Assembly: GCA_048941285.1 (NCBI GenBank)
Contig: JBHLNS010000004.1
Coordinates: 2,896 to 66,895, forward strand
Length of the DNA stretch: 64,000 nt
Direction of reading: 5' to 3'
DNA from: Promethearchaeota archaeon
GTDB lineage: Archaea > Asgardarchaeota > Lokiarchaeia > Sigyniarchaeales > SOKP01
Under the pieces are notes generated by a model. The model was not told where the DNA came from, searched no databases, and was given only the letters and a program-made list of their open reading frames with translations. Below, in pieces: positions 13,646 through 31,799 of this stretch. The translations under genes were made by a program, and so were the position numbers. The stretch's first letter is position 1. The number at the start of each line of letters is the position of its first letter.

Positions 13646-14005
13646 TTATACAGCTAACGTTTCTTTTAATTTTCTATAAATATTATTTACTTTTGTTCCG
13701 ATCTCTTCAAATAAACTATTTTTTTCCTCTAATTCTTTTGATAAAATTGATAGATCCCCCGTTTCAGTGAATTCATTTAGCTTATTCTCGGTTAAACTCT
13801 GATTTAAAAAGAATGGAAAAAATTCTATTAATTGTTCTATTAGCCTTATTCTAAGTTCAATAATTTGCTTTCTCAATTCTTTTGGAGTAAGATAACCATC
13901 AGCTACTTTTTCAATTCCTTTTTTTAGAATATTTAATTGAGCCTCATCAAATATAATTTTTTCAAGCATTTCATAAAGTAAATCTTTTTTTAGTTCATTC
14001 ATCAT
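13646..14005 (-). CDS. small coiled-coil protein, last gene of the membrane operon
   Basis: Start ATGATG at 14005/14002 overlaps the stop (13995-13997) of the 1278-aa gene. The sequence is heptad-like and Glu/Lys/Leu-rich. Confidence 0.5.
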   Translation of the reverse strand: MMNELKKDLLYEMLEKIIFDEAQLNILKKGIEKVADGYLTPKELRKQIIELRIRLIEQLIEFFPFFLNQSLTENKLNEFTETGDLSILSKELEEKNSLFEEIGTKVNNIYRKLKETLAV

Positions 14006-17000
14006 CGTTGTCCTCCTCATAGATGTAGTGCTGAATTTTAATAAAGAAGTCATATATAAATTGATATACCTCTTTAGCTAAGGATTCTAGATTATAGGTT
14101 TCTAGATTTAGCACATTATATCGTTCTATATAGTCTCTAAGTTCTTGTTTAGTAATTGGAAAATCTTTAATATCTTCTAAAAAAGTAAGGAATTCTTCTA
14201 ACTTATCTGGAGATATTGGCTTCTCTATATTATAATAATGCTTTAAAATATTCATTAAGAAATTTTTAATTAATCCATGTTCTATTTTTAATGCGTTGCT
14301 ATAATCTCCATTATTAATATAATTGTAAATTTTAAATATATCATAGTTAAAATCGCTTAACTCACGCATTAAAGCATCTTTTAAGCTTTGTTTCTGCACA
14401 ATATATTTTCGAGGTTTCTCTTGAAATATTTTAGTTAAACCAGATTTATTCGTAGCTTTTTCTAATATCTCAACATTTATATCTGTTTGTGTTTTCCCCT
14501 TTGTCTTATAATAATCATTTAATGCTTCTTGATATCTCTCCCCTACGGAATAAGAGGTTCTTAATGCTTCTGAACCACTAGCCTTCCGCGGATGATTTTC
14601 AACTAAATATCCATGTTTAATTATTATGTTTAAAAGCTCATCCCGAATTTTTTTAATGTGCTCCTTCCTATTAGTCTTCTGAGATGCTTTTGGATAAATT
14701 ATTTCTTTTAACTGAGTTTTAAGTTTATGTATATAAAGATTCCCAATTTGGTCGATTGTTTGGATCTCATCTAGAAATTTAATTACTTCCTCCAAATATA
14801 TGATATAATGCCCTAGATCTATCTCAAACAATGACTTTTTAGCTTGTTCTAATATTTTTCTTTCTGTAAATTTTAGGTCAAATCCCTGTTGCTCCATAAA
14901 CGATATAATTTTATCATAAGGAAGTGGATTATTTTCCTTAATAGCTTTCCAATCAACGTAAGCTGGAAATGGTTGATCAATATCATCTCTCCTGATTAAA
15001 ACTTCATTATTTTTCATATTCTTGAGATACATAATTTGATAAGTCTGATTTCGAGAACGTGTATAGTATCCAATGCCTTCAATTTCTTGTAAGTTCAATA
15101 GATTTCGCAATATTGAAATATCACGGCTATCTGTAGCTTTCAGTGTTATTACATTATTAAAATGCAGCAAAAAGTTCGCATGAAGATAATGAATTTGGTG
15201 CGCAGAAAAAATTAATCCGAAATTATTCTCAAATAATGGTTTTAAGAAGAGATCTACTTTATCATAATTTCTTTTTAAATCTAGGAAATATGAATCAAAG
15301 AATATATCTATATGCGGAATTATAATAAATTTCTTGAAATGTTCTCCTTGATTTTTAACGTAATGAATAAATTTTGCTAAAATAATGAATGTTAAAAAAA
15401 TTTTTTTATTCAAATCTCTTATTACAGAAAGATCAATGATAACTGTTTTTCGATTCTGTATAAAATGATTGGATAAAATACTATCTTTTTGAATACCTTG
15501 AAAGAAAGATAAATCACCATGTGAAAAATCTGAAAATAAAGAAAGGAGTGTATCACTTATCGGGCTTTTTTCCCAATCACTCTGATTTTGTAATGCCATA
15601 CGAATAGAACCCAAATCCATGTCAGGATTTTTTTGAATAGTATTTCGAAACATTTCAACTGAACGCTCATCTTTCTTAAAAGCTAATCCAAATGCATCGA
15701 ATACATATTCCAAGTAATCGGTATTATGCGGATCGTATGGAATATCTGATTTAGTAGGGTCTATTATGAATGCACTTCCATATTTAAAAATTAATATATC
15801 CTCTTTAAACCTAGAATCTTCAAAATAGTTATATAGCTTTGACCAATCTCCTGTAAAATCAAATATAACTGAAGAAATTTTTGTTTTAACTAATTCCGAA
15901 ACTATTTTCATAGAAATTAAATCTCTATTCTCAGAAGAACCGTTTACGATTAACAATTTCTTTAATTGGCCAAGGGTAAATCCTACGGGGACTTCTGGTT
16001 CTAAAACTTCAGTATTAATAGTATGACCTATTGTGACAAAATTTTCTAAATATAAAGGGGTATTAAATTCTGCAGCAATTTTAGTTTTTGTGCCTTTTTT
16101 GAGAATGTCAACAATCGTTGATAGAGGATACATAGACGTTCCTTGTAACATCACATAATTTAAATGACTACCATTTAATCGAAATAAGTTGTTCTTTATC
16201 GTCGAAAACAGAAATCCTGAAATTAAGTTCTGTCTTTTTAAGTCTTCAATTTCATAACTTTGAAAATTAATATTATATGCTCCTTTTAAAGCATTAACCT
16301 GAATAATTAATTCTTCTTCTAACTCAGAAAAATTTGTAACTTCAAGTAAATCAACAAATTTATAGGAATTGATCGTCATGGTTAAAATACTGTACCACAT
16401 TCCATATCGATATCCTAACCATCGTTCGGCTTCAATTTCATCCTTAATCTGCGTTTCTTCTTTCCAAAGCATCAATCTTTTTTGTTTTTCATTTATGAAT
16501 TTTAAACCTTTCTTATAAAATTCATAAAAGTTAATTGGTTGATTTTTTAAAGTGTAGCTAAATGATATCTTGTGATTGTTTAAGCTTTCAATAAACTTGC
16601 TAAGAAGGCAAAAAGGATTTTGGTATACGTATTTAAGATTGACCATTTTCATTCCAATTAGGACTTGATTGTTTATATGAATAAATAAACTAAAAGGAAA
16701 CTGTTTAACATAATAAAAAAGAACATTTTTGAATGGATTAGTAATTAATATATCATTATCTTCTAATAATCTCGATTTTGTAAATTGAAATAATAATGAT
16801 CTCCACCATATTAATAGAAATGCTAATACAAAACCCAAATTAACTAAAATAATATATAAAAAAAATATGTTAATAGAAAAAAGAACATAATCAATATAAA
16901 TTATTAAAACAGTGATTATTAAAAACTTACCAAGGAAATAACCATTAAATCCTTTCAAATATTCTTTTTTGCTCTCATTACCATTTTGATATGACTCATC

Positions 17001-17831
17001 TTCTATATAAAAAGTCCGTAAGGCATTGATCAAATGATTTCCAGAAAGAAGCATTACCTGAAAATGATGAAAATTACTGACGAGATTGCTTTTTAAATCA
17101 GTAGATTGCTTATTAATAAAATACTGTAAACGATCTAATTTATGCCGTGATAGAATCCCTTTTATGTCATAAAATACAGAAAAATATATTTTTGCTACCC
17201 TCGAATCTAATGAATTAATAGTAATCTCCCTTGAAGCATTTTCTTTAAACAAAGAAATAATGGGTTTTTGAACAATTTGATATGAGTAAGATAATCTTGT
17301 ATTTTTTGAACTTAATGCTTTAATAAATTGATGAATCGCTGAATGAACATTTTCAGGGATCACATTTATCTGAAATATTTTAATAGCAATATGAACAATG
17401 TCTTTTCGATTAGAAATATATAATGTTGTAGTATCTTTTTTGTTATGCCAAAAAATTAAATCCTCAAATGGGTTAAAAGAAACTTTATCTCTAAAAGTAA
17501 AAGGAATGAGATACCTCAATATATAAAACTCATCATAAAACACTACAATAAACAAAATTCCACATATAACACCAATGCTAGTAGATAGAATTAGATTTTG
17601 AGAAAAGATATACATTGAAATAATTAGAAATATAAATAAAATTAATAAAAACCCAGTTTTAACAATTGATAAATTATTATTTGTATCTTTAAATGAAGGA
17701 TTTACTCTCCAGATTTTTAAATATTTTTTCTTCTCTTGATTCTCCTCTATTACTGTATATTTTTTTCTGTTCTTATCATTATCAAAATCATTTATTCCTA
17801 ATGAGGCCTCATAAGTATAGTCTTTTGTCAT
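13995..17831 (-). CDS. giant membrane protein: 2x(TM hairpin + NPF-beta module) + FtsK/HerA/VirB4-like P-loop fold with eroded Walker motifs + helical C-terminal region
   Basis: 1278-aa ORF. It has two TM hairpins, each followed by related modules (NPFEDLIFW..TLYISNRKDIVHIAIKIF / NPFKNVLFY..SLFIHINNQVLIGMKMV). The central region follows the HerA/DUF87 template, but Walker A reads LIVNGSSENRD, Walker B reads FIIIPHIDIFF, and the sensor region reads GLIFSAHQ...NNVITLKATDSRD. Confidence 0.6.
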   Translation of the reverse strand: MTKDYTYEASLGINDFDNDKNRKKYTVIEENQEKKKYLKIWRVNPSFKDTNNNLSIVKTGFLLILFIFLIISMYIFSQNLILSTSIGVICGILFIVVFYDEFYILRYLIPFTFRDKVSFNPFEDLIFWHNKKDTTTLYISNRKDIVHIAIKIFQINVIPENVHSAIHQFIKALSSKNTRLSYSYQIVQKPIISLFKENASREITINSLDSRVAKIYFSVFYDIKGILSRHKLDRLQYFINKQSTDLKSNLVSNFHHFQVMLLSGNHLINALRTFYIEDESYQNGNESKKEYLKGFNGYFLGKFLIITVLIIYIDYVLFSINIFFLYIILVNLGFVLAFLLIWWRSLLFQFTKSRLLEDNDILITNPFKNVLFYYVKQFPFSLFIHINNQVLIGMKMVNLKYVYQNPFCLLSKFIESLNNHKISFSYTLKNQPINFYEFYKKGLKFINEKQKRLMLWKEETQIKDEIEAERWLGYRYGMWYSILTMTINSYKFVDLLEVTNFSELEEELIIQVNALKGAYNINFQSYEIEDLKRQNLISGFLFSTIKNNLFRLNGSHLNYVMLQGTSMYPLSTIVDILKKGTKTKIAAEFNTPLYLENFVTIGHTINTEVLEPEVPVGFTLGQLKKLLIVNGSSENRDLISMKIVSELVKTKISSVIFDFTGDWSKLYNYFEDSRFKEDILIFKYGSAFIIDPTKSDIPYDPHNTDYLEYVFDAFGLAFKKDERSVEMFRNTIQKNPDMDLGSIRMALQNQSDWEKSPISDTLLSLFSDFSHGDLSFFQGIQKDSILSNHFIQNRKTVIIDLSVIRDLNKKIFLTFIILAKFIHYVKNQGEHFKKFIIIPHIDIFFDSYFLDLKRNYDKVDLFLKPLFENNFGLIFSAHQIHYLHANFLLHFNNVITLKATDSRDISILRNLLNLQEIEGIGYYTRSRNQTYQIMYLKNMKNNEVLIRRDDIDQPFPAYVDWKAIKENNPLPYDKIISFMEQQGFDLKFTERKILEQAKKSLFEIDLGHYIIYLEEVIKFLDEIQTIDQIGNLYIHKLKTQLKEIIYPKASQKTNRKEHIKKIRDELLNIIIKHGYLVENHPRKASGSEALRTSYSVGERYQEALNDYYKTKGKTQTDINVEILEKATNKSGLTKIFQEKPRKYIVQKQSLKDALMRELSDFNYDIFKIYNYINNGDYSNALKIEHGLIKNFLMNILKHYYNIEKPISPDKLEEFLTFLEDIKDFPITKQELRDYIERYNVLNLETYNLESLAKEVYQFIYDFFIKIQHYIYEEDNDDE

Positions 17832-17832
17832 A

Positions 17833-18693
17833 TTATTTTCTCTCCTTTTTAAATAGTTTTATATAAATATATATCAAAAGAATGGTGCCTCCAAAGAGAA
17901 ATAGTGTCCAAAAACTTAATTCACTTGAATACATTGAAATGAAACTTAATTCAAAGAGTATTATAATTCCTATGGAAGCAATTAAAATAATTAATCCAAT
18001 GATGAAATATTCATATATATTTTCTATCGAGTTTTGATAATTTATATTGTTTTTGAGAGTACCTTGAATCGTTATTTTTCCTTTCTTATCATTTATTAGT
18101 GAATTTTTGATTGAATGTAAATGGATTGCTGTCTCAAATTGTTGGCTATTTAAATTATGTTGAAGACTTTTTTGAAGAGATAATTCTCGTTCTTTAATTT
18201 TTTGTATAATTAAAGGTCTTAAATTACTGGAATTTCTATCCTTTTTCTTAGCTCTGGGAGTTAAAAAAGAAAAGACTCCTAATGTAGATGTTTCTACGAG
18301 CTCATCATATTCTACGCGTTTATGGAGATTAAGAATATCTATTTTTCTTAAATCATAATATATCTGGAAGGTATTTTTAATGCATTCAAATGGAATGTCC
18401 CCTTTACTTTTAAGAAAAAAGATTTCACACTCTCTTAGGATTTCAATATGTTTTTGGTTGAAAATAGAAATTTTCAAATTTTTCTCAAATATGTCATTTA
18501 TCAACTCCATATATTCAAAAATCTTCTCTCCTGAACCTTTATTTCTTGGTCTAACACCCAGATGAATCCCAATTTCATTAACTTTATTACTGGTTAGGAT
18601 GAAACTCACGACAGCTAACTTTTTATAATTCTTATTTTCTTTGCAAACTTGTATTAAATTCTTCAGTTTAGCATCAATGATTTGTTGCTTCAT
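17833..18693 (-). CDS. membrane-anchored protein (soluble N-domain + C-terminal TM hairpin)
   Basis: 286-aa ORF. The C-terminus (FIIGLIILIASIGIIILF...FWTLFLFGGTILLIYIYI) forms two TM helices. Its stop lies 1 nt upstream of the start of the 1278-aa gene. Confidence 0.55.
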   Translation of the reverse strand: MKQQIIDAKLKNLIQVCKENKNYKKLAVVSFILTSNKVNEIGIHLGVRPRNKGSGEKIFEYMELINDIFEKNLKISIFNQKHIEILRECEIFFLKSKGDIPFECIKNTFQIYYDLRKIDILNLHKRVEYDELVETSTLGVFSFLTPRAKKKDRNSSNLRPLIIQKIKERELSLQKSLQHNLNSQQFETAIHLHSIKNSLINDKKGKITIQGTLKNNINYQNSIENIYEYFIIGLIILIASIGIIILFELSFISMYSSELSFWTLFLFGGTILLIYIYIKLFKKERK

Positions 18694-19418
18694 TTGTTTC
18701 CCTCTATGAATGTTGTTACAATATTATTGATATCATCTTTAGAAATTGGAGAATTAATTTCTTGATCTAACTCTTCTTCGGCGATATATTGATCTAAATC
18801 AATCAACTCTTGAGAATCTTGAATTATTTTGTGCATCTGTTTTTCTGGATTACGTTCTCTCTGAATAAAATTACTTATAGTTTTAAAATAAAAAATGGAG
18901 TAAGGGAAGATAAGAGGAAATGAAATTATTTGTAAAACATAACTAGGACCAATTGAATACCATATAATAACTTCTGAATCATAATTTCTTATGTTTAGAA
19001 GAGGATAGTAAAGTTCGTTTGGTATTAAATACATTAGCGGACAAATAATCAAATAAAATGCTAATAATAATAATATAAATCCGTTCGCATAGCCATATTT
19101 GTTATAAGTTTTAATTACTTTAGCTTTTTCAACATTTTTAAAAATTACGATGTATCCAGAAGTAAGTAATGCAATTAATAATAGGGCATTTATGACAAAA
19201 GGAATTGTAGCATTTACAGGTTTCATTCCTTCATTCAGAGGGGAAGCCTCAGTAAAAGGTGTTGCCCACCCATAAAAAAAATAATAACTCCAAGATACTA
19301 AAAGTTCACTATCAAAGTTATAAATTTGATATGAATACCACTCTAAAAACAATGAAAAAAATAGTAAGGTTAAACCTATTAAATAGATAATTCGAAAGCG
19401 ATGGATAATCTTGCTCAT
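18690..19418 (-). CDS. 4-TM membrane protein with acidic C-terminal tail
   Basis: 242-aa ORF with four hydrophobic helices. It overlaps the next gene by 4 nt (ATGA). Confidence 0.55.
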   Translation of the reverse strand: MSKIIHRFRIIYLIGLTLLFFSLFLEWYSYQIYNFDSELLVSWSYYFFYGWATPFTEASPLNEGMKPVNATIPFVINALLLIALLTSGYIVIFKNVEKAKVIKTYNKYGYANGFILLLLAFYLIICPLMYLIPNELYYPLLNIRNYDSEVIIWYSIGPSYVLQIISFPLIFPYSIFYFKTISNFIQRERNPEKQMHKIIQDSQELIDLDQYIAEEELDQEINSPISKDDINNIVTTFIEGNK

Positions 19419-19424
19419 GATTCC

Positions 19425-21422
19425 CTAATCCTCCAAAAATGAGCTATATTTTTCTACTAATTTATTCTTGAGGCGATTTTCTTTTGAATTCATTGATTGA
19501 AGGTTTTCATTTGATTCGAAAAGCTCTAAGCCTTCAATTTTTCTTTTACTTAATTTATTTCTAAGAAAATTTTCAGCATTTTTCTGCTCTATTTTATTTA
19601 TAATATTGAAATCGTTGTCTTTTTCAACACACTCGAAAACAAACTGTTCCATAAATCTTGTGCTTAGCTCTTCATTAATTAAGATGAGATTTGTCTCATC
19701 AAAATCTAATTTCTTTTGATAATAAGGTGTGGCAAATTCATATTGGAGTTCTGATTTCTGTTTATAAAGTCTTAGATAAATATATGCTATTAGAACAATA
19801 TAAAACGAAATTACACCATAACCTAAATTAATTAGGAAAGATAAAACTGAATACGCTTGGAATAATAATACTAATAAAAAAAAAAAACCATAAAGCATAA
19901 AGGGAGTTGAATATTTTCGTAAGTCTTTAATAAATTTATTTGAAGCTTTACAATGTAGATCCAATGCGTTCTTCTGTTCGCTATAAGTTTCTATTAGAAA
20001 ATGCTTTTGGTCAATGTATTGCAGGAAATCCTGTAGCTGGGATAGTGATAAAATATGTATATTTAATTGTTTTTGGTAAGCAAATGGAACAAGCTTTTCA
20101 GCAAAACCTACATTATTTCGATGTATTAATAATGGTTCAATTAAGATTTTATATTGAAGTGGTCCAGAGCGAAAAAAAAGTTTTTTGTGTGTAAAAGTTT
20201 TTTCCAGAAAAAGGTTGATATTTAAATATTTAGATAAATATCTAAAAAATCTTCCTTCATTTAACATATCTTCAAGAAGAACATCCTGGATATTTTTAAA
20301 TGCTTTTAAATATGATTGAGATAGTCTTTCTAACCTAAAATTCTGTTCAGTATAATTCCCTATAGATCGATATTTAATTGCATTACCTGATACAATAATT
20401 GAACCATTTAAAGAACTAATCTTTATAGGGATGATTAATATCAATTCCAAGAATTCTTTTACTCGGATGAGTTTAACTGCTAGGAGATCTATTCCAGTAA
20501 ATATCGTTCTTAATTCCGGACTTTTTTTAATTATAACAAATTCAGATAATTCAAGTTCTTTTGCAGTTTCCAAATAAATTTCCTGTAATTGAGAAGAATT
20601 TAAAGATTCACTAGAGATTGTATCTTGTTCCTGGACTTTAAGATTAGATTGTCGTAATAATTCTGGAGGGACAACTAGGAAGTTATTTATTTCCGATTCT
20701 TGGGATAATTCGGGATTATTTTTTTCTATTTTTTTTTCAGAAACATTAAAATTGCTAATTGATGCGCCATTATTATCAATCTCTTCGTAATCAAACTCCT
20801 CAAGGTTATCGTCATACCTTTCAAAATTCTCCAAACTATTTTCTAAAGGTTTAATATCAGATGTATCAATCTGTGGAGCATACCACTCTTCAGTTTCAGG
20901 TTTTTCAAATTTTCTTTCAAACCATCTATGTGATCCTTCCCCTGATTTTGATTCTTTGGTGTTGTCCAGATTTATCCTAATATTGCTTTTTTCTGGAAAA
21001 TCGTTTAATTTTTTTAGCCTTACATGCTGCTTCGCGTTTTCTATAAATTTTTGGGCTTTAACTATCCCAATACCATTAATCTGAGTTATTTTCTTTGGTG
21101 AAGAATATGCTAATTCTGAGATTGAACTAATACCAATTTCAGCAAGCTTTTCAGCAACTTTTAAACCAATACCATCTATTATTGTAAGGGATTCTCTTTT
21201 TATACTTGGATTTAAAGAGTTTTGTTGCGACACATTTGAATTAAATATATCAAATTTATCGATCCATTCACAATTCTTTTGCAATTTAGCTTCCCTAAGG
21301 CCATTATTAGATATTTTTAGCGCTTGATCTACATCATTTGCTTGAAAGGCTTCTTGTGCCATTTTGTAGTAGAACTTCAAATCCGATTTTTTCTGCATTA
21401 AACCATCTTGAGTATCAGTCAT
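19425..21422 (-). CDS. membrane protein with N-terminal TPR-like helix pair and tandem helix-hairpin-helix DNA-binding motifs
   Basis: 665-aa ORF with HhH motifs IDGIGLKVAEKLAEIGISSISEL and INGIGIVKAQKFIENA. An acidic linker follows, then a TM hairpin (FMLYGFFFLLVLLFQAYSVLSFLINLGYGVISFYIVLIAYIYL). First gene of the operon. Confidence 0.6.
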   Translation of the reverse strand: MTDTQDGLMQKKSDLKFYYKMAQEAFQANDVDQALKISNNGLREAKLQKNCEWIDKFDIFNSNVSQQNSLNPSIKRESLTIIDGIGLKVAEKLAEIGISSISELAYSSPKKITQINGIGIVKAQKFIENAKQHVRLKKLNDFPEKSNIRINLDNTKESKSGEGSHRWFERKFEKPETEEWYAPQIDTSDIKPLENSLENFERYDDNLEEFDYEEIDNNGASISNFNVSEKKIEKNNPELSQESEINNFLVVPPELLRQSNLKVQEQDTISSESLNSSQLQEIYLETAKELELSEFVIIKKSPELRTIFTGIDLLAVKLIRVKEFLELILIIPIKISSLNGSIIVSGNAIKYRSIGNYTEQNFRLERLSQSYLKAFKNIQDVLLEDMLNEGRFFRYLSKYLNINLFLEKTFTHKKLFFRSGPLQYKILIEPLLIHRNNVGFAEKLVPFAYQKQLNIHILSLSQLQDFLQYIDQKHFLIETYSEQKNALDLHCKASNKFIKDLRKYSTPFMLYGFFFLLVLLFQAYSVLSFLINLGYGVISFYIVLIAYIYLRLYKQKSELQYEFATPYYQKKLDFDETNLILINEELSTRFMEQFVFECVEKDNDFNIINKIEQKNAENFLRNKLSKRKIEGLELFESNENLQSMNSKENRLKNKLVEKYSSFLED

Positions 21423-21930: not shown

Positions 21931-24468
21931 ATGGTATTAACAGATTTTACTGACAAAATTAAAAAAAAAGAGTTAGAAACTGAGGCTGAAAATGAGATCT
22001 TCAAATATGTATCTGATAAACGCATCCTAAGAGTGCTTTTTGAAGGAAGAATCTTTAGTTTACGGCAGATTCAAATTGATACTATAAAAATGGGATTATT
22101 TTTTCGAAAATCATTTTTAATAAGTGCACCTTCCGGGAGCGGAAAGACTCTAATTGGTGAATTATGTGCTATTAATAATATCTTTCAGAAATTTGGAAAA
22201 TCAATTTATTTAGTCCCATATAAGGCTTTAGCTACAGAAAAGTATTCTCATTTTAAGAAGAGCTATAGTCGATACGGAATAAAGATAGAGCTTTCTATAG
22301 GTGATTATGATGTGGATGACTCTAAATTAGAAAAAGCAGATTTAATAGTCACCACTTATGAAAAAATGGATTCAATTCTTAGAAATTTCTATGATAAAGA
22401 GTGGATTTTTAATATTTCGACTATAATAATTGATGAAATTCATATTATTGGTGAATCTGACAGAGGACCACGATTAGAGTCCTTAATAGTCAGGCTAAAT
22501 GAATTCCTTCATAATCCACAGATAATTGGACTTTCAGCAACTATAGCAAATGCAGAATTTTTTAATTCGTGGCTTTCTTCGCTTGGAAATAAAACAACTT
22601 TAATTAAATCAGATATTCGTCCTGTACCACTCCATTACAGAGTCGAAATTACCCAAAATAAAGATTCAACTATAAAAAGGTTTATTAGATCCACACTTGA
22701 AAAAAATGGACAAGTACTTATCTTTGTAAACCGTCGGAAAGGCGCACAGAAGGTAGCAGAGAATATTAAAACATTAGTTTGCAAATTTCTCGAAGAAAAT
22801 GAATTAAATATTTGCATGTCCCTTGAAAAAAGATTATCTTCAATTAAAGGAGGACATCGTGAATTGAAAAAGATCATAAAATCTGGTGTTGCATTTCATC
22901 ATGCAGGTTTACTTCCAAAGGAGAGAAAAATTATTGAAGATAACTTTAGAAAGCGCATTATTAAAGTAATCTGCTGTACTACAACACTCTCAGCCGGGAT
23001 AAATACCCCTGCTCGTGTTGTTATCTTGAAAGATTTTAAGAAGTATGTAACTTCTGGCCATAATATTAAGAACTTCTCAGGATATTTCGAAAATGGGGAT
23101 GGTTTTTCTTATTTTAAACCTTTTTCTGCAAACGAAGTATTTCAAATATTAGGGAGAGCTGGAAGGCCTGGACTTGATTCTGTTGGTTATGGAATAATTT
23201 TGGTTAAAAATATTGAAGAAAAAATGTGGGTTGAAGATCGATTTTTCCAAAATCATGTACTTAAAGACGTTTCAAAACCTAAATATAATGATCTCATTTC
23301 AGGTTTAAACAAGATAAATACTCTAAAAGAACAGGTATTATTAAGAGTTTTTGAGGAAAAAAAAATCACATTAGAACAGTTAAAACAATTTTTCGAAAAA
23401 ACCTATTTCTGGTATGGAATTAAAAGTAAAATGAAGGAACAGAAAATTCCTATTGAACAATTACTGATGATAAAGGAGATTACCCCCATCAATATTTTAA
23501 AGCTTCATACTGATGCTAATACAGTAAAAGAGTTAAAAGATAGTAATTACCAAATTAAATTAACCAATCTTAATGGTTCAAATATCTCTGCATATGTAAA
23601 AACTTCATTTGGGGTATATTATTGCCAATTTGATATTGAAACAGGAATTCAGTGTACATGTGGATTTAAGAATGGCATTTCTGATAACTTCGCAAATGAT
23701 GAATTTTCTTTCGAGTTTTGTAAACATATTACATCTTTTTTACTCTACTCCGTCCAGCTTCCCGATGCTAAATTTCAAAAGTATGTTGATTCAATCATTC
23801 CAAAATCAGTAAAAAACCAATATATCTTATCATATCTTTTTGAGAAAGGATTAATTTTAAAAGATAAGAAGGGATTAATCAGATGTTCTCATTTTGGCAA
23901 ATTAATAATCAGATTATATTTATACCCAGTTTCTGGTGTGATGATTAGGTATAAACTTGAAAATAATGAAATAAATACTTTTCAAGATTTGATTAAAGAA
24001 GCATTTGACATTTTGAAGGCAGAATTCCGCGTCAAAGACAATAAAATGCTACAGCCTATTTTAGAGTGGGCAGATGAGGAACCGATTGACCAAATTTTAG
24101 ATAAATATAATATTATGGCGGGAGATTTATTTTCTGTAAGAGATAATTTAGAACGAATTATCATATTTATCGGAATTATTGCTGGTAATTTAAGTACAAA
24201 CGGGATTGATCTCCAAGATAAGTTAATCAGAATCGCGGAAATGTGTGAAACTCTAAAAATCCGATTACACTATGGTATTCATGAAGAATTATTTGATCTA
24301 GTTTTAAGATTAGGTGACGTAGCACGCGTAAGAGCAAGAATATTATATAAAGCAGGATATCATACAGCTTCACAATTAAAAAAGGAAAATCCTTATGTCT
24401 TAAATCAAAAAACTGGCCTAGGTATAAATTTATGTAAAAAAATCATTATAAATAAGAAATCGAAATAA
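21931..24468 (+). CDS. Ski2-like/Hel308-family superfamily-2 DNA helicase with inserted SWIM zinc finger
   Basis: Walker A APSGSGKTLIGE, DEIH box (IIDEIH), SAT (LSAT), motif VI QILGRAGRPG and a C-terminal HhH-like RARILYKAGYHTASQL. At 845 aa it is about 130 aa longer than typical Hel308. The insert contains CTC-x21-CKH. Confidence 0.8.
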   Translation: MVLTDFTDKIKKKELETEAENEIFKYVSDKRILRVLFEGRIFSLRQIQIDTIKMGLFFRKSFLISAPSGSGKTLIGELCAINNIFQKFGKSIYLVPYKALATEKYSHFKKSYSRYGIKIELSIGDYDVDDSKLEKADLIVTTYEKMDSILRNFYDKEWIFNISTIIIDEIHIIGESDRGPRLESLIVRLNEFLHNPQIIGLSATIANAEFFNSWLSSLGNKTTLIKSDIRPVPLHYRVEITQNKDSTIKRFIRSTLEKNGQVLIFVNRRKGAQKVAENIKTLVCKFLEENELNICMSLEKRLSSIKGGHRELKKIIKSGVAFHHAGLLPKERKIIEDNFRKRIIKVICCTTTLSAGINTPARVVILKDFKKYVTSGHNIKNFSGYFENGDGFSYFKPFSANEVFQILGRAGRPGLDSVGYGIILVKNIEEKMWVEDRFFQNHVLKDVSKPKYNDLISGLNKINTLKEQVLLRVFEEKKITLEQLKQFFEKTYFWYGIKSKMKEQKIPIEQLLMIKEITPINILKLHTDANTVKELKDSNYQIKLTNLNGSNISAYVKTSFGVYYCQFDIETGIQCTCGFKNGISDNFANDEFSFEFCKHITSFLLYSVQLPDAKFQKYVDSIIPKSVKNQYILSYLFEKGLILKDKKGLIRCSHFGKLIIRLYLYPVSGVMIRYKLENNEINTFQDLIKEAFDILKAEFRVKDNKMLQPILEWADEEPIDQILDKYNIMAGDLFSVRDNLERIIIFIGIIAGNLSTNGIDLQDKLIRIAEMCETLKIRLHYGIHEELFDLVLRLGDVARVRARILYKAGYHTASQLKKENPYVLNQKTGLGINLCKKIIINKKSK

Positions 24469-25475: not shown

Positions 25476-26000
25476 TTAAACCTTTAATTTATAGTAATAA
25501 TCACCATTTATTCGTTTCAAAACGCCTTGTTTCTTTAGTTTTCTTGTTAATAATTTTACTTCTGATTTCGGAATATTGTAGTTTTCTGCCATTATTTCAA
25601 TAATATAGTAAGGAAAAGTATTATAAGCTTTAGATAAGTTATATAGCATTTGTTTTAATTTCTCAGAATAATTATAATCATTAAAATCAATATTAATTGC
25701 ATCTTTTTGACTTTTTTCCCTTCCAACTACTCTGAAATCTTCTGATGTTCTAAATACAGGTTCTGAACCCAACTCTTTTATTGCTAACTCATTCTGCTTC
25801 TTTTTCACTAATTCTATTGCATTGGATATACCTTTTATAATTTCACTTCGTTCTATTACGTTATTAACTTTATGAATATAACCACACCTAATACATTTCT
25901 TCGTCTTTTGAGTACTTTTTGCATAAATATAGTTATGACATTTTCTACAAGAAAATATCAAATAAGGAGTTTCATCTTTTTTCCAAATTATATCTTCCAA
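25476..26000 (-). CDS. zinc-ribbon protein (DUF1922-like) with C-terminal winged-helix-like region
   Basis: CRKCHNYIYAKSTQKTKKCIRCGY ribbon. The C-terminal KLLTRKLKKQGVLKRINGDYYYKL is wHTH-like. TTG start 6 nt after the Hef stop. Confidence 0.5.
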   Translation of the reverse strand: MEDIIWKKDETPYLIFSCRKCHNYIYAKSTQKTKKCIRCGYIHKVNNVIERSEIIKGISNAIELVKKKQNELAIKELGSEPVFRTSEDFRVVGREKSQKDAINIDFNDYNYSEKLKQMLYNLSKAYNTFPYYIIEIMAENYNIPKSEVKLLTRKLKKQGVLKRINGDYYYKLKV

Positions 26001-26006
26001 AGTTGC

Positions 26007-28178
26007 CTATTCCTCCTGAGGATTTTCTAGAATATTTTTTATAATAAAATATAATTCTTCTTCATTATCGATAACTATTGCCTGAATTTTTTGTTTTTTG
26101 GCAAATTCTTGTATTTTTCTCGCAATAACTCTCTTCTCTCCCTCGATATTTTGAGAAAAATCGATAAAGTCAAAGACCATGATGAAAAGTGAAGAGATTT
26201 GCTTAAAATCATTAATATCTCTTATTAGGTTTACTAAATTAAAACCTTTAGGATCGTAGATCTGGATAAGAATCTTGTTATGAATGATTATATGATGATC
26301 AGATTCTATAATATCATAAAAAATATTATCACTTTGGAGTCTTTTTCTCAGCCCGAATTTCATGGGTAAAAATTTACTTATTTTTAAATTATTTGTTATA
26401 TTGGGAGGATCAATTTTAGTCGATTCTTGCATAAATGATTCGATTTTAGATTGGTGCTGTCTTGGTTCTATTACTTTTCTCCGCAATTCCACTAGTTTAG
26501 GCTCTTTCTTAGATTTTTTAATGGTTTTCTCATTTTTAATAATAGCCATCTGATCATTGACGGGGCTATATTTATATGAATCTTGTAATTGTTTAGGATT
26601 TTTCAAATGTAAATTCATCCTTTTGAGTTTATTCATTGCAATTCTTAAATATATTTCGTCTCGCGTGTCATTACTATAAAGAATAACGACTTTACCCTCA
26701 CGATGTCTTGCTGTTCTTCCTTTCCGCTGAATGAATCTTACATCTGAAGCAACTACATCATAAAATATAACTAAATCACATTCAGCAATATCCAGCCCTT
26801 CTTCACCGACGTTTGTCGAAATGAGAACATTATATTGCCCCTCTTTAAAGTTATCTAGAATTTCTATTTGCTTTTTTTGGGACATTCCTTTATCATCAAA
26901 TGATTTCGTGGTTTGCCCCACAAATCTTACTGCATTAATTGAAGGAATTTTTTGAAGTTTTTTTGTTATATTCTTAACGGAATTACGCAACTTCACAAAC
27001 ACTAAAATTCGAGAATGAGGATTATTCTTCAATTCTTCTAAAATAATCTTAACCAAAACATAATACTTCGGATGAATCAACATTTCAGGAGAAAATTCAA
27101 CATTTTTCTTTAATTCTAAAAATATGCGATATAATCGCCCATCTGATGACAATATTTTAGTGGCTTTCGAACTACTTTTCTTCTTTGCGTCTCGATGAAG
27201 TTTATTAAAATAATCTAATAATACATCGAGCCCTTGCTGCTCTACTAATTCAAGCATATGAAATAAAATTAAAGCCTGTGCATTAATCGATAAAGCGCTA
27301 TAAATTCCTGTTTTGTCCCCATTGCTTTTTAACTCATTTACTAATTCTGAATTTAACTTTAATAAATCTTTCCTGATAACTTTTGTAAGTAATTGTTCTC
27401 CTTTTATTTCTAAAAAATTGAGTTGAGAAAGGTAATGCAATCGTTCCTCTAATACAATCGTGAGCAATTTATATACATCTTTCATTAGACTGGTTAAATC
27501 GACTCCAATTTTGTATATATCCATTGGTTTGAGATAATTCTTTACATCTTCGTCTTTTCGTGTTCTGATATGAATATTTTCTATAGGAATATGCAAATTA
27601 TTACATAATACGGTAATTTTATTTTTTGAAGCTCCAGGTGAAGCAGTCAGACCTAATATTATTCCGTCGGGATTATGATCGACAAATTCATCAGCAATCA
27701 TCGTATAAGGATAATCTCCAGTCCCATGATGAGCTTCATCAAAAATCACTAAAGCAGTATTTGAGAGGGAATACTTTTGATTCACTAAATCGTTTCTTAG
27801 AGTCTGAGGAGTGTAAAATAATATTTGATTTTGATGAAAAATATCAATCCTATGCTCAGGAAGTACTTTTCCTGTAAGAATTGCATATTTATTTTCAGGA
27901 ATCTTAAGAAATTTTAAGAATGTATGATAATGCTGATCTATTAATGGCCTGGTAGGGGCAAGGATAATAACTTTACTATCAACTGGGAACATTTCTATTA
28001 TTTTACCAGCAACAAGAACCGCAATTATCGTTTTACCCAACCCTGTAGGAAGTACAACTAACGAGTTCTTTCCAGCACATTGTTCTGCGATTTTTTCTTG
28101 GTATTCTCTAACCTCTAATTCACTCGAGTCTAATATCGATGCGCTTTTTTCTACAGTTAGCCTTATCTCACCCATCAT
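26007..28178 (-). CDS. hef: Hef/FANCM/Mph1-family SF2 helicase with C-terminal ERCC4-like domain lacking catalytic residues
   Basis: PTGLGKT Walker A, DEAH (FDEAHH), TASPG and motif VI QRKGRTAR. The C-terminal ~135 aa keep the XPF/ERCC4 topology, but I could not find the GDY/ERK residues. There is no (HhH)2 tail. Confidence 0.75.
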   Translation of the reverse strand: MMGEIRLTVEKSASILDSSELEVREYQEKIAEQCAGKNSLVVLPTGLGKTIIAVLVAGKIIEMFPVDSKVIILAPTRPLIDQHYHTFLKFLKIPENKYAILTGKVLPEHRIDIFHQNQILFYTPQTLRNDLVNQKYSLSNTALVIFDEAHHGTGDYPYTMIADEFVDHNPDGIILGLTASPGASKNKITVLCNNLHIPIENIHIRTRKDEDVKNYLKPMDIYKIGVDLTSLMKDVYKLLTIVLEERLHYLSQLNFLEIKGEQLLTKVIRKDLLKLNSELVNELKSNGDKTGIYSALSINAQALILFHMLELVEQQGLDVLLDYFNKLHRDAKKKSSSKATKILSSDGRLYRIFLELKKNVEFSPEMLIHPKYYVLVKIILEELKNNPHSRILVFVKLRNSVKNITKKLQKIPSINAVRFVGQTTKSFDDKGMSQKKQIEILDNFKEGQYNVLISTNVGEEGLDIAECDLVIFYDVVASDVRFIQRKGRTARHREGKVVILYSNDTRDEIYLRIAMNKLKRMNLHLKNPKQLQDSYKYSPVNDQMAIIKNEKTIKKSKKEPKLVELRRKVIEPRQHQSKIESFMQESTKIDPPNITNNLKISKFLPMKFGLRKRLQSDNIFYDIIESDHHIIIHNKILIQIYDPKGFNLVNLIRDINDFKQISSLFIMVFDFIDFSQNIEGEKRVIARKIQEFAKKQKIQAIVIDNEEELYFIIKNILENPQEE

Positions 28179-28791
28179 TAATCACCATAAATGTATGATT
28201 ATCTATAGTTATGTTTTGAAACTGTTTATTGCTTTTATTGTAAGAAATAATCACTTCTCCTAATTTTAATCCTAAGTTAGAAGGGTATACTACACAATTT
28301 CCTTTTGTTTCAAACAAATATGGGTGTGTGTTCCTTAATTTCTTAACCTTTGATAATAATTCAGAGCCATTCTTCACAATATCAAACCCCTTGCCTCTAT
28401 TAACATGCTTAAAGATATAGATAATATCGTTTAATAGTTTTATATGGGAATTTGATATATAGATTGTTGGTGGGATTTCAATTTTTTCGTATTCATCCTT
28501 TTTATCAGTAATTAGATAAACTTGATTATTTGCACGATATTTTCGTATTTGGTAATTTTTAAAAACATTTTCAAACTTTTCTTGAAAATTTAGTAATAAG
28601 GATATAATTTCGTCTGTCTGAGACTGAGGGATTCCCAACAGTTTTATTAGTTTGCTAAAATTGAACTTTCTATCATAAAAGTTCTCGAACTTTCCTAGAT
28701 AATCCACCATTTGGTTTAATACTCTAAGAATCTTTCGAAATTGCTCTGTATTATAATCATTAGTATTATTAGTATCTGAGGCTAAAGTCAT
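28168..28791 (-). CDS. hypothetical protein, possible HTH + beta-rich (WYL-like?) regulator, co-transcribed with hef
   Basis: Overlaps the hef start by 11 nt. HTH-like FSKLIKLLGIPQSQTDEIISLL. The domain guess is weak. Confidence 0.45.
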   Translation of the reverse strand: MTLASDTNNTNDYNTEQFRKILRVLNQMVDYLGKFENFYDRKFNFSKLIKLLGIPQSQTDEIISLLLNFQEKFENVFKNYQIRKYRANNQVYLITDKKDEYEKIEIPPTIYISNSHIKLLNDIIYIFKHVNRGKGFDIVKNGSELLSKVKKLRNTHPYLFETKGNCVVYPSNLGLKLGEVIISYNKSNKQFQNITIDNHTFMVINDG

Positions 28792-28837
28792 CAAATATTA
28801 ATAATTTATTGAATGAATAAAAAGGAAAAATTTAGCT

Positions 28838-31750
28838 TTAATTATTTTTAGATTCTTTTTTCAACTTTTCTAGCTGCTTTGATGATATTATAAAAACTAT
28901 TCCAGGTACAGCAATAAATATTATCGTTAATGGAATTGCTCTAGCAATATCCTTCTTATAGCTTTCTGAGATTTGATTTACATCAAAGAAAACACTTTTA
29001 ACATTAATTGGGGAACCATAGATCCCATCATTGATAAAAAGTTCGAATTTGTATTCTCCAGTCATACTTGGATTATAAATAATGCTGAACATACTATAAT
29101 CAGAAAAATCTTCATGAATTGCGTGAATCTCATCTAAATATTCATTATTTCTATAAATTTGAGCATAGGATCTTCCAGAAGTTAATGGAAACTTCTCATA
29201 ATTAGCCAAAATTGAAACATTGATCTTAAAGAGTAAACCATTCAAATCGGAATGGTAATTTATTTCACATTCTAAAGTATAGTTAGTTGAAAATGAGATA
29301 TAAAGCTCTGCCTTTACCTGCATTCCCTCATATGCTCTTAGATATCCTTCGATTAGCGGGTAACAATCTGAGTTTATTGGAATTGGGATGTTATACACAT
29401 ATGAATTATTAGAGAGTTTTGAAAAAACAAAGCTCCCAATCTGTTCACTTTCAAATTTGAATGTAATATAAGTACCAAAATCCCTCAATATAAGATTGTA
29501 GAGTGATACTTCCATATGATTTAAACCCCCTAATTGGCAAGTATCAGAATGTCGTGCGTCAATTCCGATATCACTAGTTCGTGCCATTTCACAAATCCAG
29601 AAAAAGATCTCTTGATTCAGTATTTCTTTATCTGTAGTAAAATAGAATTCATTAGAATTATCTGAGAAAATATCCTGAACTAGCGCTTGAATCTTATGAA
29701 AATTAAACTCAATATTTAAATTTAGAAGTTCTGAAAGCTTATAGCTGTAGTATATGTTTTTAATATTGGAATAGTTAAGATTTGTTTCAACATAATTTTT
29801 AATTTTCTGGCTGTTTTTATTAAATAAGTTGAGCACTTTCAACACATAGGTCATAAAATAAGTGGTTTTTAAGATAGTTGCAACGTCATCAGCATATTTT
29901 GGACTAAAGTAAAGCATTGTAGAGGTTTCAATCAGATTTCTATCGATATAATTATATATTGCAGTTATATCAAAACCAATTTCAGCAAAATTCAAGCCGA
30001 GATAATTCCCAAGAAGTTCTAAACATTTTATAGCATAATAAGTATAATCGCAATAGATTTTGTTATTAATAACCTCAGATCTATCCTTAGTATATTTTAA
30101 AATGGAAGTGAATCCGCCAAAAGTATCATAATATGTTGTATTTAAAAATTGAGTTTTTACTATATCATTCATTAAATCCATTAAATCAAAAGAATTAGCA
30201 AAATCATCTAATTTGAAAAGCTTCTCTAAAGATTCTAAGGCATAGTATGTAGATTGATGAGAATTTATTTGATCAATCTTATTTATGTAAATCTTATGTC
30301 CCGAAGTATAAAACTCTATTGGATATGAACGAAACCACTCAATCATTGTATCTTGTCTTAGATATCCATTAAAATATCGCGATATATCATCAGGCGGGTA
30401 ATCTCTATATGAATTTTTAATAGCTCCATACAATTTTTGGATATTCAGATCCGAAATTCTCGTATATAAATCAAAGGAACTAACAACAGTATGGATAAGA
30501 TTCATAGAATTATAGTCTTCAGATAAGAGTGAAAAGGCTATATAAGATTGGTAATATAAAGTAGCATTCCCAATGAGACTTCTATCACCTTTTGATAATT
30601 GGAATATTTCATTTGTATTATACAATGAACGAATAATTTGATATGTATCTATAAGTTCATGGATAGCAACTGTGGTTGACTGATCCCAGTTCCCTAAAGA
30701 GTTACGATGGTTTAGAATAAAAGAAACAGTTTCAGTTGTATTTATCCCTATAAAACCGGTAATTACTGAAAGTTCTAAACCTATCGACGTTGCAACAATA
30801 TTAGTGTAATTCAATCCATAATCTAAGGCAGATATCCGAAAATAATGAGAATCTGGATCATAGAGATAACTAAGAAATTGGTAAAAATCTACTTCATTAA
30901 TACTAGACACCATTCCAAATACTTCTAATGTTTTTATACAATAATATGAAGAAATGAGATTGGGCTCATAATGAAATAAGAGAGAATCGAAACTTTCATC
31001 TTCATCATTTTCAAATCCTCCTACAGTCCAACCCATTCCTTCTGTAAGTTGGAGAGCGTTAATAAAAGATATAATACTCGCTCTCTGCGAAGAATATCCA
31101 AACCAGTCGTCCATCAATAAATCTAATGTGATCACAGCAAAATAAGTATTATCTGCCGTTGCTATTTTATATCCGTCTTCTAAATCTGCATTATACTGGC
31201 GTCCAATAAACCCACCGGTTGAGGGATTAAAACAACTCCAGATAAAATCTATAATTTCTGAGACATCGATTAAATATAACGCATCTAACAATTCTAAAGA
31301 AAGAATCGCATAGCATGTTACCTCCAATACCGTGCTCAATGGGAAATATGACTTTGTAAAATCGGTATCCAAATATCGATATGCTAAAGTGTCCATAAAG
31401 TGAGTACTATCATCTTCATAGTGATCCATGATATAATTTATTATCTTAGATTGGTTTATCTCATGTAATTTTCCCACCCTACTTAGCGTATACAAAGCAT
31501 AATAAGTTGCTTGTAAAGAAGGTTCATAGATTTGGGGAAAATATCCAGCATCATAATAATCTGCCACTTTAGAATTAAATACATTATCTATGAGTCTCTT
31601 ATTACTCACCTCGGACATTTGAGTGATTTCATTAAAATCACTTAAAGAATAATTACTTGAACTATTGGTAAAAGGCTGAGTGTAAATAATATTACTAAAA
31701 AATAAAATTCCAATAACACTACAAATGAATATGACGGGTTTCAATTTCAT
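28838..31750 (-). CDS. large cell-surface protein with prenyltransferase/terpene-cyclase-like alpha-alpha toroid repeats, N-terminal signal/anchor and C-terminal TM anchor
   Basis: At least nine repeats of the type QATYYALYTLSRVG, EVTCYAILSLELLD, DNTYFAVITLDLL, SSYYCIKTLEVFG, QSTYYALESLEKL and DYTYYAIKCLELLG. The C-terminal beta-rich region is followed by a TM helix and a basic tail. The ATG at 31750 is preferred to the TTG at 31762. Confidence 0.55.
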   Translation of the reverse strand: MKLKPVIFICSVIGILFFSNIIYTQPFTNSSSNYSLSDFNEITQMSEVSNKRLIDNVFNSKVADYYDAGYFPQIYEPSLQATYYALYTLSRVGKLHEINQSKIINYIMDHYEDDSTHFMDTLAYRYLDTDFTKSYFPLSTVLEVTCYAILSLELLDALYLIDVSEIIDFIWSCFNPSTGGFIGRQYNADLEDGYKIATADNTYFAVITLDLLMDDWFGYSSQRASIISFINALQLTEGMGWTVGGFENDEDESFDSLLFHYEPNLISSYYCIKTLEVFGMVSSINEVDFYQFLSYLYDPDSHYFRISALDYGLNYTNIVATSIGLELSVITGFIGINTTETVSFILNHRNSLGNWDQSTTVAIHELIDTYQIIRSLYNTNEIFQLSKGDRSLIGNATLYYQSYIAFSLLSEDYNSMNLIHTVVSSFDLYTRISDLNIQKLYGAIKNSYRDYPPDDISRYFNGYLRQDTMIEWFRSYPIEFYTSGHKIYINKIDQINSHQSTYYALESLEKLFKLDDFANSFDLMDLMNDIVKTQFLNTTYYDTFGGFTSILKYTKDRSEVINNKIYCDYTYYAIKCLELLGNYLGLNFAEIGFDITAIYNYIDRNLIETSTMLYFSPKYADDVATILKTTYFMTYVLKVLNLFNKNSQKIKNYVETNLNYSNIKNIYYSYKLSELLNLNIEFNFHKIQALVQDIFSDNSNEFYFTTDKEILNQEIFFWICEMARTSDIGIDARHSDTCQLGGLNHMEVSLYNLILRDFGTYITFKFESEQIGSFVFSKLSNNSYVYNIPIPINSDCYPLIEGYLRAYEGMQVKAELYISFSTNYTLECEINYHSDLNGLLFKINVSILANYEKFPLTSGRSYAQIYRNNEYLDEIHAIHEDFSDYSMFSIIYNPSMTGEYKFELFINDGIYGSPINVKSVFFDVNQISESYKKDIARAIPLTIIFIAVPGIVFIISSKQLEKLKKESKNN

Positions 31751-31799
31751 TTTCTCTACCAAAAACTGTTTCTTGTATGTTTAACTACCATTCTTACTA

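Follow-up and report, generated by a model that had tools for sequence, protein, structure and literature searches.

Can a protein of a class built around ATP-driven translocation keep its fold, and be kept by a lineage, after all of its catalytic motifs have gone? This question is raised by a gene in a 64,000-nucleotide stretch of DNA from a Promethearchaeota archaeon (assembly GCA_048941285.1, contig JBHLNS010000004.1, positions 2,896 to 66,895 of the forward strand), hereafter called the window, whose numbering is used for all positions. Among known archaea, the Asgard archaea are most closely related to eukaryotes. Conjugation and type IV secretion systems (T4SS) have VirB4 as their signature ATPase, and proteins of the HerA/FtsK class are typically active motors. 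The gene (13995-17831, minus strand) encodes a 1278-amino-acid protein with a VirB4-like predicted architecture and no recognizable ATPase motif. Our analysis points to a lineage-wide family under selection, apparently a non-catalytic derivative of a conjugation-type ATPase, that is encoded in a new operon. Full-text literature searches returned no paper describing an Asgard VirB4-like family or a motif-less HerA-like family.

A predicted VirB4-like protein without ATPase motifs

The open reading frame (ORF) of this VirB4-like pseudo-ATPase is intact, and 62 full-length homologues of its product were found. The window has a G+C content of ~29% throughout, from which the gene is not distinct. 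The original prediction, made from the letters alone, had proposed a HerA-type P-loop domain in which the Walker A, Walker B, and sensor positions are substituted. All of the strings that it quoted were present in the ORF, each after its quoted upstream context, and its coordinates were correct to within a few codons; the exact ends differed for all three motifs. TIGHTINTEV occupies residues 600-609 and VPVGFTLGQLKKLLIV residues 614-629. They are followed by NGSSENRD at residues 630-637 (15921-15944, previously given as 15921-15953), IIIPHID at residues 836-842 (15306-15326, previously 15295-15333), and GLIFSAHQ at residues 872-879 (15195-15218, previously 15199-15222).

Regular-expression searches of all 1278 residues found neither G....GK[ST] nor the relaxed pattern [AG]....[GA][KR][ST], in agreement with the earlier statement that no GxxxxGK[ST] exists in the protein. 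The sole GK[ST] was 'KGKT' at residue 1112, in an unrelated context. Strings of the form hhhh[DE][DE] were absent from the ATPase-like domain and occurred only at residues 96 and 1010, outside it. In outline, the protein has a pair of transmembrane hairpins, a VirB4-type N-domain in duplicate, a domain of the HerA/VirB4 fold, and, probably, a winged helix near the C terminus. Along the chain, a transmembrane hairpin precedes the first VirB4-type N-domain, a second hairpin precedes the second copy, and the HerA/VirB4-fold domain follows.

Predicted fold and former nucleotide site

The domain in question covers residues 625-960 (14952-15959, minus strand) and contains a helical insert at residues ~700-792. 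An AlphaFold2 model of residues 500-1010, built with a 48-sequence alignment, had a mean predicted local distance difference test score (pLDDT) of 79.6, with values >90 in most of the core. Foldseek comparison of this model with the PDB gave Sulfolobus HerA (4d2i) as the best match (E 1.5e-11, probability 1.00), and matches to HerA proteins had E values of 1.5e-11 to 1e-8 over 400-490 columns. A total of 132 PDB chains matched at E<=1e-3. Further matches included HerA-NurA, the HerA subunits of the Sir2-HerA and DUF4297-HerA defence complexes, the C-domain of DndH, and Cag-beta. In a viral structure library, the matches were to 'conjugal transfer protein' and to HerA-like, FtsK-like, and A32-like packaging ATPases, the FtsK match being weak. 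As modeled, the fold of residues 500-1010 is that of the HerA/FtsK class of ASCE P-loop ATPases, which bears out the HerA-type fold first proposed. We also looked for an intact Walker A or Walker B elsewhere in the protein and for signs that the fold is not of the P-loop type, and neither was found.

In sequence comparisons, the isolated domain matched Pfam DUF87 (PF01935) with an E value of 0.0062 and 17.1 bits, below the gathering cut-off of 23.2; this sub-threshold match spanned profile positions 42-217, the part past Walker A. The full-length protein had no significant match in Pfam (including DUF87, FtsK_SpoIIIE, and CagE_TrbE_VirB, PF03135), NCBIfam, or PHROGs. Whether the query was the protein itself, a profile of the full family, or one of the domain, PDB sequence searches produced no match to HerA or VirB4. 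A Gar1-like string that recurred in these searches ('AAEFNTPLYLEN' against 'FNAPIYLEN' of the Gar1 barrel, E>1) was treated as chance.

We then located the former motifs on the model and by alignment. The model has a strand at residues 625-629 (LLIVN), three loop residues (630-632), and a helix from residue 633, and this strand-loop-helix at residues 625-633 stands at the position of strand 1, P-loop, and helix 1. Since only three loop residues separate the strand from the helix, the phosphate-binding loop appears to be shortened as well as substituted. The spacing is that of TrwK, the VirB4 protein of plasmid R388: TrwK reads 'LIGQSSSGKT', 19 residues, 'FD', and the 1278-amino-acid protein reads 'IVNGSSENRD', 19 residues, 'FD'. 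By this spacing, N630 corresponds to the first Walker glycine, R636 to the lysine, and D637 to the Ser/Thr. The sensor regions are likewise parallel, with 'GIFVFATQEPSD...CATYIFL' in TrwK and 'GLIFSAHQIHYL...NNVITL' here. An hhalign comparison of the domain profile with a family of live HerA-like ATPases encoded beside paralogues was co-linear over 343 columns with weak support (probability 10%, E 0.003); it paired 'IvNGxsxx-Re' with 'isGLtGxGKs', 'iPxID' with 'IxxDE', and 'xxFGlIf' with 'sRGvxli'. The motif positions thus agree from three lines: the strand-loop-helix of the model, the TrwK spacing, and the co-linear hhalign alignment.

At these positions, the former Walker A loop NGSSENRD has neither the lysine nor the Ser/Thr. 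The former Walker B strand, FIIIPHID (residues 835-842; 15306-15329, minus strand), has its acidic residue displaced by 2-3 positions. GLIFSAHQ is the remnant of the sensor strand, and the basic 'R[KR]xG' stretch that should precede it, which we take to be the arginine finger, is absent. The family has 'PLxxxxFG' there, with no conserved basic residue. Elsewhere the stretch is present, as 'IRKQNG' in TrwK, 'FRKRGLG' in a live ATPase called F2 that is described below, and 'FRRAG' in short-form relatives. Hence the lysine and Ser/Thr of Walker A, the glycine before the lysine, and the Asp/Glu of Walker B are all replaced in the 1278-amino-acid protein, and substitution at the Walker A, Walker B, and sensor positions is upheld.

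Conservation of the remodeled site among relatives

The 62 close homologues are 38-81% identical to the protein and ~1270 amino acids long, and none has a precomputed Pfam domain. Every homologue that carries a name comes from an Asgard metagenome-assembled genome (MAG). Most are free of frameshifts.

Conservation was counted in 48 aligned family members. G631, R636, F657, D658, G661, W663, D800, S802, K834, P839, and R927 were invariant (48/48). N630 was present in 45/48 and Q879 in 46/48; residue 842 was Asp in 45/48 and Glu in the remainder. Residues 632-635 and 840 vary freely, residue 841 is Ile or Val, and P839 ends the Walker B strand. The replacements N-G-x4-R-[DE] and I-P-x-I-D are therefore fixed features of the family, and lysine at position 636 was found in none of the 48 members.

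Searching 1.84 billion representative proteins with a profile retrieved 164 relatives. The distant ones (E 1e-37 to 1e-7) were of two sorts, some of ~750-920 amino acids with a single module of transmembrane hairpin plus N-domain, others of 1120-1410 amino acids. The set of 211 relatives was Asgard wherever a name was given, and the named distant relatives were from Promethearchaeota, Lokiarchaeum, Baldrarchaeota, and Sigynarchaeota. Down to ~20% identity, [AG]xxxxGK[ST] did not occur at the Walker A site of any of the 211. Two matches to an intact Walker A did turn up among these proteins, both at non-homologous positions and attributable to chance. The check proposed with the original prediction, whether orthologues retain the lysine, has thus been answered: position 636 is arginine and never lysine in the aligned family, and the site holds no Walker A in the wider set.

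Most of the distant relatives read 'GG[ST]xxxR' at the P-loop, and one clade, which includes UYP48509.1 of Lokiarchaeum ossiferum, lacks even the arginine. A short-form subgroup retains hhhhDxxD, the basic 'FRRAG', and a 'SxQxPS' sensor. Because these short forms keep Walker B, basic, and sensor features, Walker A was probably lost before the other motifs, and the family of the 1278-amino-acid protein is probably the most eroded.

Mean column identity was highest in the segment ahead of the P-loop strand (residues 546-624, AAEFNTPLYLEN...TIGHTINTEV...VPVGF; 15960-16196, minus strand), at 0.74, followed by 0.72 in the winged-helix-like segment and 0.675 in the ATPase-like core. The N-domains were lower, at 0.57-0.58, and the transmembrane hairpins lowest, at 0.46-0.51. 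With column identities of 0.675-0.74 against 0.46-0.58 in the N-terminal half, the former ATPase domain is under the most constraint. Judged by these sequence comparisons, no other part of the protein is conserved as well as the ATPase-like domain, whose site has been remodeled under selection and is not decaying.

Within the segment ahead of the P-loop, the stretch 'AAEFNTPLYLENF.TIGHTINTE' is the most conserved of the protein, and E588, P592, and G617 are invariant at ~20% identity. R927 (15051-15053), in 'SRNQTYQIMYL', belongs to a set of just four residues that do not vary anywhere in the superfamily. The pattern 'R..[ST]YQ..[YF]L', which follows the ATPase-like core, matched no known HerA or VirB4 motif.

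N-terminal half and C-terminal region

The N-terminal half (residues 54-545; 16197-17672, minus strand) is a tandem of two units, each a transmembrane hairpin plus a domain of ~190 residues (hhalign probability 96.7%, E 3.8e-10). The first hairpin covers residues 54-98 (17538-17672), with hydropathy peaks at residues 54-72 and 80-98 and model helices at 53-77 and 80-97. The first N-domain repeat follows at residues ~101-295 (16947-17531). The second hairpin covers residues 295-340 (16812-16949), with hydropathy peaks at residues 295-313 and 322-340 and helices at 298-319 and 324-357, and the second N-domain repeat lies at residues ~349-545 (16197-16787). Both repeats were assigned to the VirB4 type from AlphaFold2, Foldseek, and hhalign.

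The AlphaFold2 model of residues 1-560 had a pLDDT of 77.8. Foldseek gave seven PDB matches at E<=0.001, all of them TrwK/VirB4 from the R388 T4SS (E 1.5e-8 to 1.7e-7), spanning ~460 columns and including a 457-residue chain; the next match had an E value of 0.066. By hhalign, the family showed no similarity to TrwK alone, and a probability of 0.15% against a TrwK-type VirB4 profile, a weak test because that profile is narrow (24 sequences of 56-79% identity to TrwK, drawn from the best 120 matches). The N-domain repeats were also compared with the N-terminal part of the live F2 ATPase and showed no resemblance. On the predicted structures, the whole protein is VirB4-like, and VirB4 is a more specific label than HerA. 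The HerA-derived identity first proposed therefore holds for the C-terminal domain, which is of HerA type, whereas the N-terminal half significantly matches only TrwK/VirB4.

The C-terminal ~300 residues include the conserved 'HGYLVE...SYSVG..YQEAL'. A probable winged-helix domain lies at residues ~1061-1110 (KHGYLVENHP...SYSVGERYQEAL; 14502-14651, minus strand), the segment with the mean identity of 0.72 mentioned above. The equivalent region of distant relatives matched PadR (E 1.8e-4) and HTH_34 (E 3.4e-5); the 1278-amino-acid protein itself had no direct match to a winged-helix family.

Operon and chromosomal setting

Five closely spaced genes run in the same direction on the minus strand, and the VirB4-like gene is the fourth of them. 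The first (19425-21422) encodes a 665-amino-acid protein with a (HhH)2 DNA-binding domain at residues ~76-140 (21003-21197) and a transmembrane hairpin at residues 513-545; it matched Pfam HHH_5 (E 1.5e-9) and, in NCBIfam, the RadA N-terminal region (E 2.3e-9) and the NusA C-terminal repeat (E 5.5e-6). It is followed by genes for a 242-amino-acid polytopic membrane protein with ~4 transmembrane segments and an acidic C-terminal tail (18690-19418) and for a 286-amino-acid protein with a soluble N-terminal part and a C-terminal transmembrane hairpin (17833-18693), both supported by conservation of the operon. The fifth gene encodes a small helical protein, listed as 135 amino acids (13646-14053). 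As listed, this ORF overlaps the end of the 1278-amino-acid gene by 59 nucleotides (13995-14053). The orthologues of the small protein, which lie 3' of the big gene in three loci (L001, L002, and L005), are 119-127 amino acids long and their BLAST alignments begin at residues 12-28, so the true start is probably at Met17/18 (nucleotides ~14002-14005), giving ~118 amino acids. Such a start would probably leave an overlap of a few bases with the upstream stop, as is typical of translational coupling.

The complete five-gene operon recurs in L001, L002, and L005. When one genome per GTDB species was scanned, 77 loci came to light, every one in a Promethearchaeota MAG, of which ~45 have the same order as the operon of the window (type-1 loci); the small fifth gene is present in most of these. 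Type-1 loci are flanked on one side by a divergent Hel308/Ski2-like helicase gene and on the other by genes for a 432-amino-acid protein and a PP-loop-like protein. In the window, the helicase is an 845-amino-acid protein of superfamily 2 (21931-24468, plus strand) with Pfam DEAD, Helicase_C, and Helicase_dom4_arc domains and a weak C-terminal DUF4332, and it is divergent in ~40 loci. The flanking genes are 63-90% identical across type-1 loci, compared with 24-77% for the operon proteins, which indicates a fast-evolving operon in a stable chromosomal backbone. As far as gene order and sequence tell, the operon is chromosomal and vertically inherited.

Searches of Pfam, NCBIfam, and PHROGs identified no VirB2, VirB3, VirB6, VirB8, TrbL, CedA, or pilin-like partner among the neighbors or their orthologues, and no live HerA-like ATPase was found in the 64-kb window. 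None of the large soluble parts of the operon proteins has a signal peptide. Almost all of the operon protein mass is predicted to be cytoplasmic, with no obvious secreted pilin.

Several other features of the surroundings were recorded. Upstream of the operon, on the minus strand at 25476-31762, is another conserved block with genes for a 974-amino-acid prenyltransferase-like alpha-alpha toroid protein, a 208-amino-acid protein, a 723-amino-acid DEAD-box helicase (RNA_helicase_helical), and a 174-amino-acid DUF1922 zinc-ribbon protein; in L002 and L005 this block directly precedes the operon. A 454-amino-acid protein (31892-33256, minus strand) had weak matches to the TFIIB zinc ribbon and TFIIB repeat (E ~1e-3), and is of interest because the type-2 loci described next hold a giant TFIIB-repeat protein. 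An IS605 OrfB/Cas12f-like TnpB gene lies ~9 kb downstream of the operon in L005 (22398-23612) and was not seen at the other loci inspected.

Paralogous loci with an intact ATPase

Several genomes have 2-3 copies of the motif-less VirB4-like gene. The extra copies are 33-43% identical and have a different conserved context, and we refer to their loci as type 2 (L043, L046, L048, L049, L054, L063 (=L004), L064, L066, L068, L069, and L076; for example, L064:6187-18320). In one type-2 subtype, the gene has a TPR protein gene upstream, preceded in three loci by a gene for a CDC48_N/CDC48_2 protein, and is followed downstream by genes for a 631-690-amino-acid protein (F2) and a 1331-1745-amino-acid protein. 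The giant 1331-1745-amino-acid protein contains TFIIB repeats and a helix-turn-helix domain.

F2 is a genuine DUF87/HerA protein, scoring 31.3 bits (E 2.8e-7) against the cut-off of 23.2. GL[TS]GxGK[ST] was present in 6/6 copies, and hhhhDE in the Walker B region of 5/6; the one sequence that was read from end to end contained 'FRKRGLG'. The occurrence of a dead paralogue beside an intact, soluble HerA-like ATPase supports the view that the motif-less protein is a non-catalytic partner. The type-2 genes seem to constitute a separate, undescribed multi-gene system.

Discussion

The motifs make a strong case that the 1278-amino-acid protein is catalytically dead. We consider it probable, with ample room for doubt, that it derives from VirB4 and serves, without catalysis, as the platform of a cytoplasm-facing membrane complex, its nucleotide site having been dismantled. 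Such a protein would no longer hydrolyze ATP and would probably not bind it in the canonical way. It would retain the role of VirB4 in oligomerizing and docking partners at the cytoplasmic face of the membrane, and would serve as a platform for the co-operonic 286-amino-acid hairpin, 242-amino-acid polytopic, 135-amino-acid helical, and 665-amino-acid (HhH)2 membrane proteins. The assembly should face the cytoplasm, because no large soluble part has a signal peptide. Given the (HhH)2 domain and the probable winged helix near the C terminus, the complex may hold or guide DNA at the membrane. Energy would come from a separate enzyme, evidently the adjacent intact HerA-like ATPase in type-2 loci; at the operon of the window, the adjacent Hel308-like helicase is a candidate energy source only, as its constant presence may reflect either a functional link or inherited gene order. 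The 'catalytically dead scaffold' of the original prediction is accordingly supported in its first word pair by the loss of motifs and in its last by the type-2 loci, and both parts stay inferential.

Several points weigh against this reading. The VirB4 and HerA assignments come from predicted structures, because sequence profiles link the family neither to VirB4 nor to any PDB chain, and hhalign backs the motif alignment only weakly (probability 10%). The loss of ATPase activity is read from motifs alone, and the invariant arginine at the lysine position could, together with the acid at 842, form an unusual ligand site. A single HhH domain and a winged helix still to be confirmed are the grounds for the proposed DNA-handling role. 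Finally, the operon in the window encodes no live HerA partner, and no neighbor is identifiable as VirB2, VirB3, VirB6, VirB8, or CedA.

The protein can be compared with several known systems. It shares with VirB4/TrwK of R388 (PDB 7o42, 7o43, 8rtd, and 8rtb) the two-part layout of an N-domain followed by a HerA/FtsK-class P-loop domain, the same 'hhhhG-x7-helix-FD' spacing around the P-loop, and a similar sensor region. Its membrane attachment by N-terminal hairpins is reminiscent of VirB3-VirB4 fusions. Unlike VirB4, the family lacks the Walker A lysine, the Walker B acids, and the Arg-finger-like basic stretch, and the 1278-amino-acid protein duplicates the N-domain and transmembrane hairpin and has an extra C-terminal region of ~300 residues. 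Its gene also differs in being chromosomal, confined to Asgard archaea, and without recognizable VirB2/3/6/8 neighbors. With HerA (DUF87) translocases it shares the pre-P-loop template 'G..v..l....L..hhhh[G]...' that had been described earlier. HerA, however, has GxTGSGKS, hhhhDEAH, and an Arg finger, is soluble, and carries an N-terminal HAS barrel, whereas the present protein is motif-less and membrane-anchored with a VirB4-like N-terminal half.

FtsK/SpoIIIE shows the same order of membrane anchor, HerA/FtsK-class domain, and C-terminal winged helix, the last called the gamma domain in FtsK and suggested here by the relatives. Unlike FtsK, the 1278-amino-acid protein lacks motor motifs and has a VirB4-like N-terminal half in place of the 4-transmembrane FtsK N-domain. 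In type VII secretion, EccC/EssC contain degenerate ATPase domains whose catalysis is lost or weakened and which have regulatory or scaffolding roles beside an active domain; this parallels the type-2 loci, where the dead protein lies beside a live HerA-like ATPase. In EccC/EssC, these domains are in tandem in one bacterial polypeptide and the P-loop is mostly recognizable, whereas here a whole family of single-domain proteins has no recognizable P-loop. Walker A mutants of Agrobacterium VirB4 reportedly still contribute structurally to the secretion apparatus, which makes a purely structural VirB4 derivative plausible.

It is unlikely, in our judgment, that the domain is still an NTPase or a nucleotide-binding switch, with R636 in place of the lysine and D842 (or D846) as a shifted metal ligand or catalytic acid. 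R636 is invariant and stands exactly at the lysine position, and residue 842 is Asp or Glu in 48/48. The 'GG[ST]xxxR' of most distant relatives and the hhhhDxxD, Arg-finger-like stretch, and 'SxQxPS' kept by the short forms suggest, moreover, that a lysine-less ancestral state may have stayed active. This idea does not sit well with the loss of both the glycine before the lysine and the Mg2+-binding Ser/Thr, or with the three loop residues before the helix in the model, from which it follows that the anion hole is not formed. In addition, the Walker B strand terminates in a proline that never varies, different residues occupy the Asp position, the family has no basic stretch, and even the arginine is missing from the subclade that includes the Lokiarchaeum ossiferum protein.

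Alternatively, the complex might be a full machine for taking up or exchanging DNA, of the Ced/Ted or T4SS type, with the pseudo-ATPase as its VirB4/CedB subunit and with VirB6/CedA and pilin partners diverged past recognition. It would be powered by another ATPase or by membrane potential, and we also hold this reading to be improbable. CedB and TedB, found in Sulfolobales and Thermoproteales, are ATPases thought to power DNA translocation, and act with a VirB6-like channel (CedA/TedA) and a VirB2-like pilin (CedA1/TedC) (PMC9905601). Like the 1278-amino-acid protein, they are archaeal, chromosomal, domesticated VirB4/HerA-like proteins encoded with small polytopic membrane proteins, and the word 'Asgard' does not occur in that paper (PMC9905601). 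The VirB4-like architecture, the HhH DNA-binding partner, and the small operon membrane proteins, which resemble the Ced set in size and topology, all fit such a machine, and divergence past detection is plausible because the Ced and Ted components have no recognizable sequence similarity to each other (PMC9905601). Against this, neither the neighbors nor their orthologues gave a VirB2-, VirB6-, or CedA-type match, CedA1 included for the neighbors, and the protein mass is almost all predicted to be cytoplasmic with no obvious secreted pilin. Furthermore, the VirB4-like protein of Ced/Ted is the presumed powering ATPase (PMC9905601), whereas here that subunit has no ATPase motifs.

A bolder form of the platform reading, which we regard as quite unlikely when taken as a whole, is that a VirB4 derivative without ATP hydrolysis was domesticated and chromosomally fixed in Asgard archaea, where it would form with the (HhH)2 protein and the small membrane partners a new complex at the cytoplasmic side of the membrane that tethers or routes chromosomal DNA, the type-2 loci, with their dead subunit, live HerA-like ATPase, and giant TFIIB-repeat protein, encoding a powered version of the same machine. 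Its roles may include, for example, chromosome-membrane attachment, segregation, or cell-to-cell DNA exchange.

It is very improbable that the cluster belongs to a mobile element (a conjugative plasmid, an integrated element, or a virus), whether still live or only a remnant, and that its VirB4-like gene encodes a decaying conjugation ATPase. In favor of this, conjugative elements typically have VirB4-like proteins as hallmarks, the operon proteins have diverged much more quickly than the flanks, and several genomes have 2-3 paralogues in other contexts. However, ~45 species-level genomes hold the operon at one constant position, flanked by the same housekeeping genes, every copy is full length (~1270 amino acids) with invariant residues and mostly no frameshifts, no integrase, relaxase, or capsid gene lies nearby, the G+C content is unremarkable, and PHROGs and the viral fold library gave only generic ATPase matches.

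If the platform reading is right, a VirB4 body plan held under purifying selection without any catalytic motif would plainly illustrate the conversion of a translocase into a structural membrane component. Dozens of Asgard genomes also carry the five-gene operon that the family defines, which is so far unannotated. The type-1 operons, which have no ATPase, and the type-2 loci, which have a dead and a live subunit, form a natural experiment on the split between scaffold and motor. As the cultured Lokiarchaeum ossiferum encodes a distant relative, the question is open to experiment.

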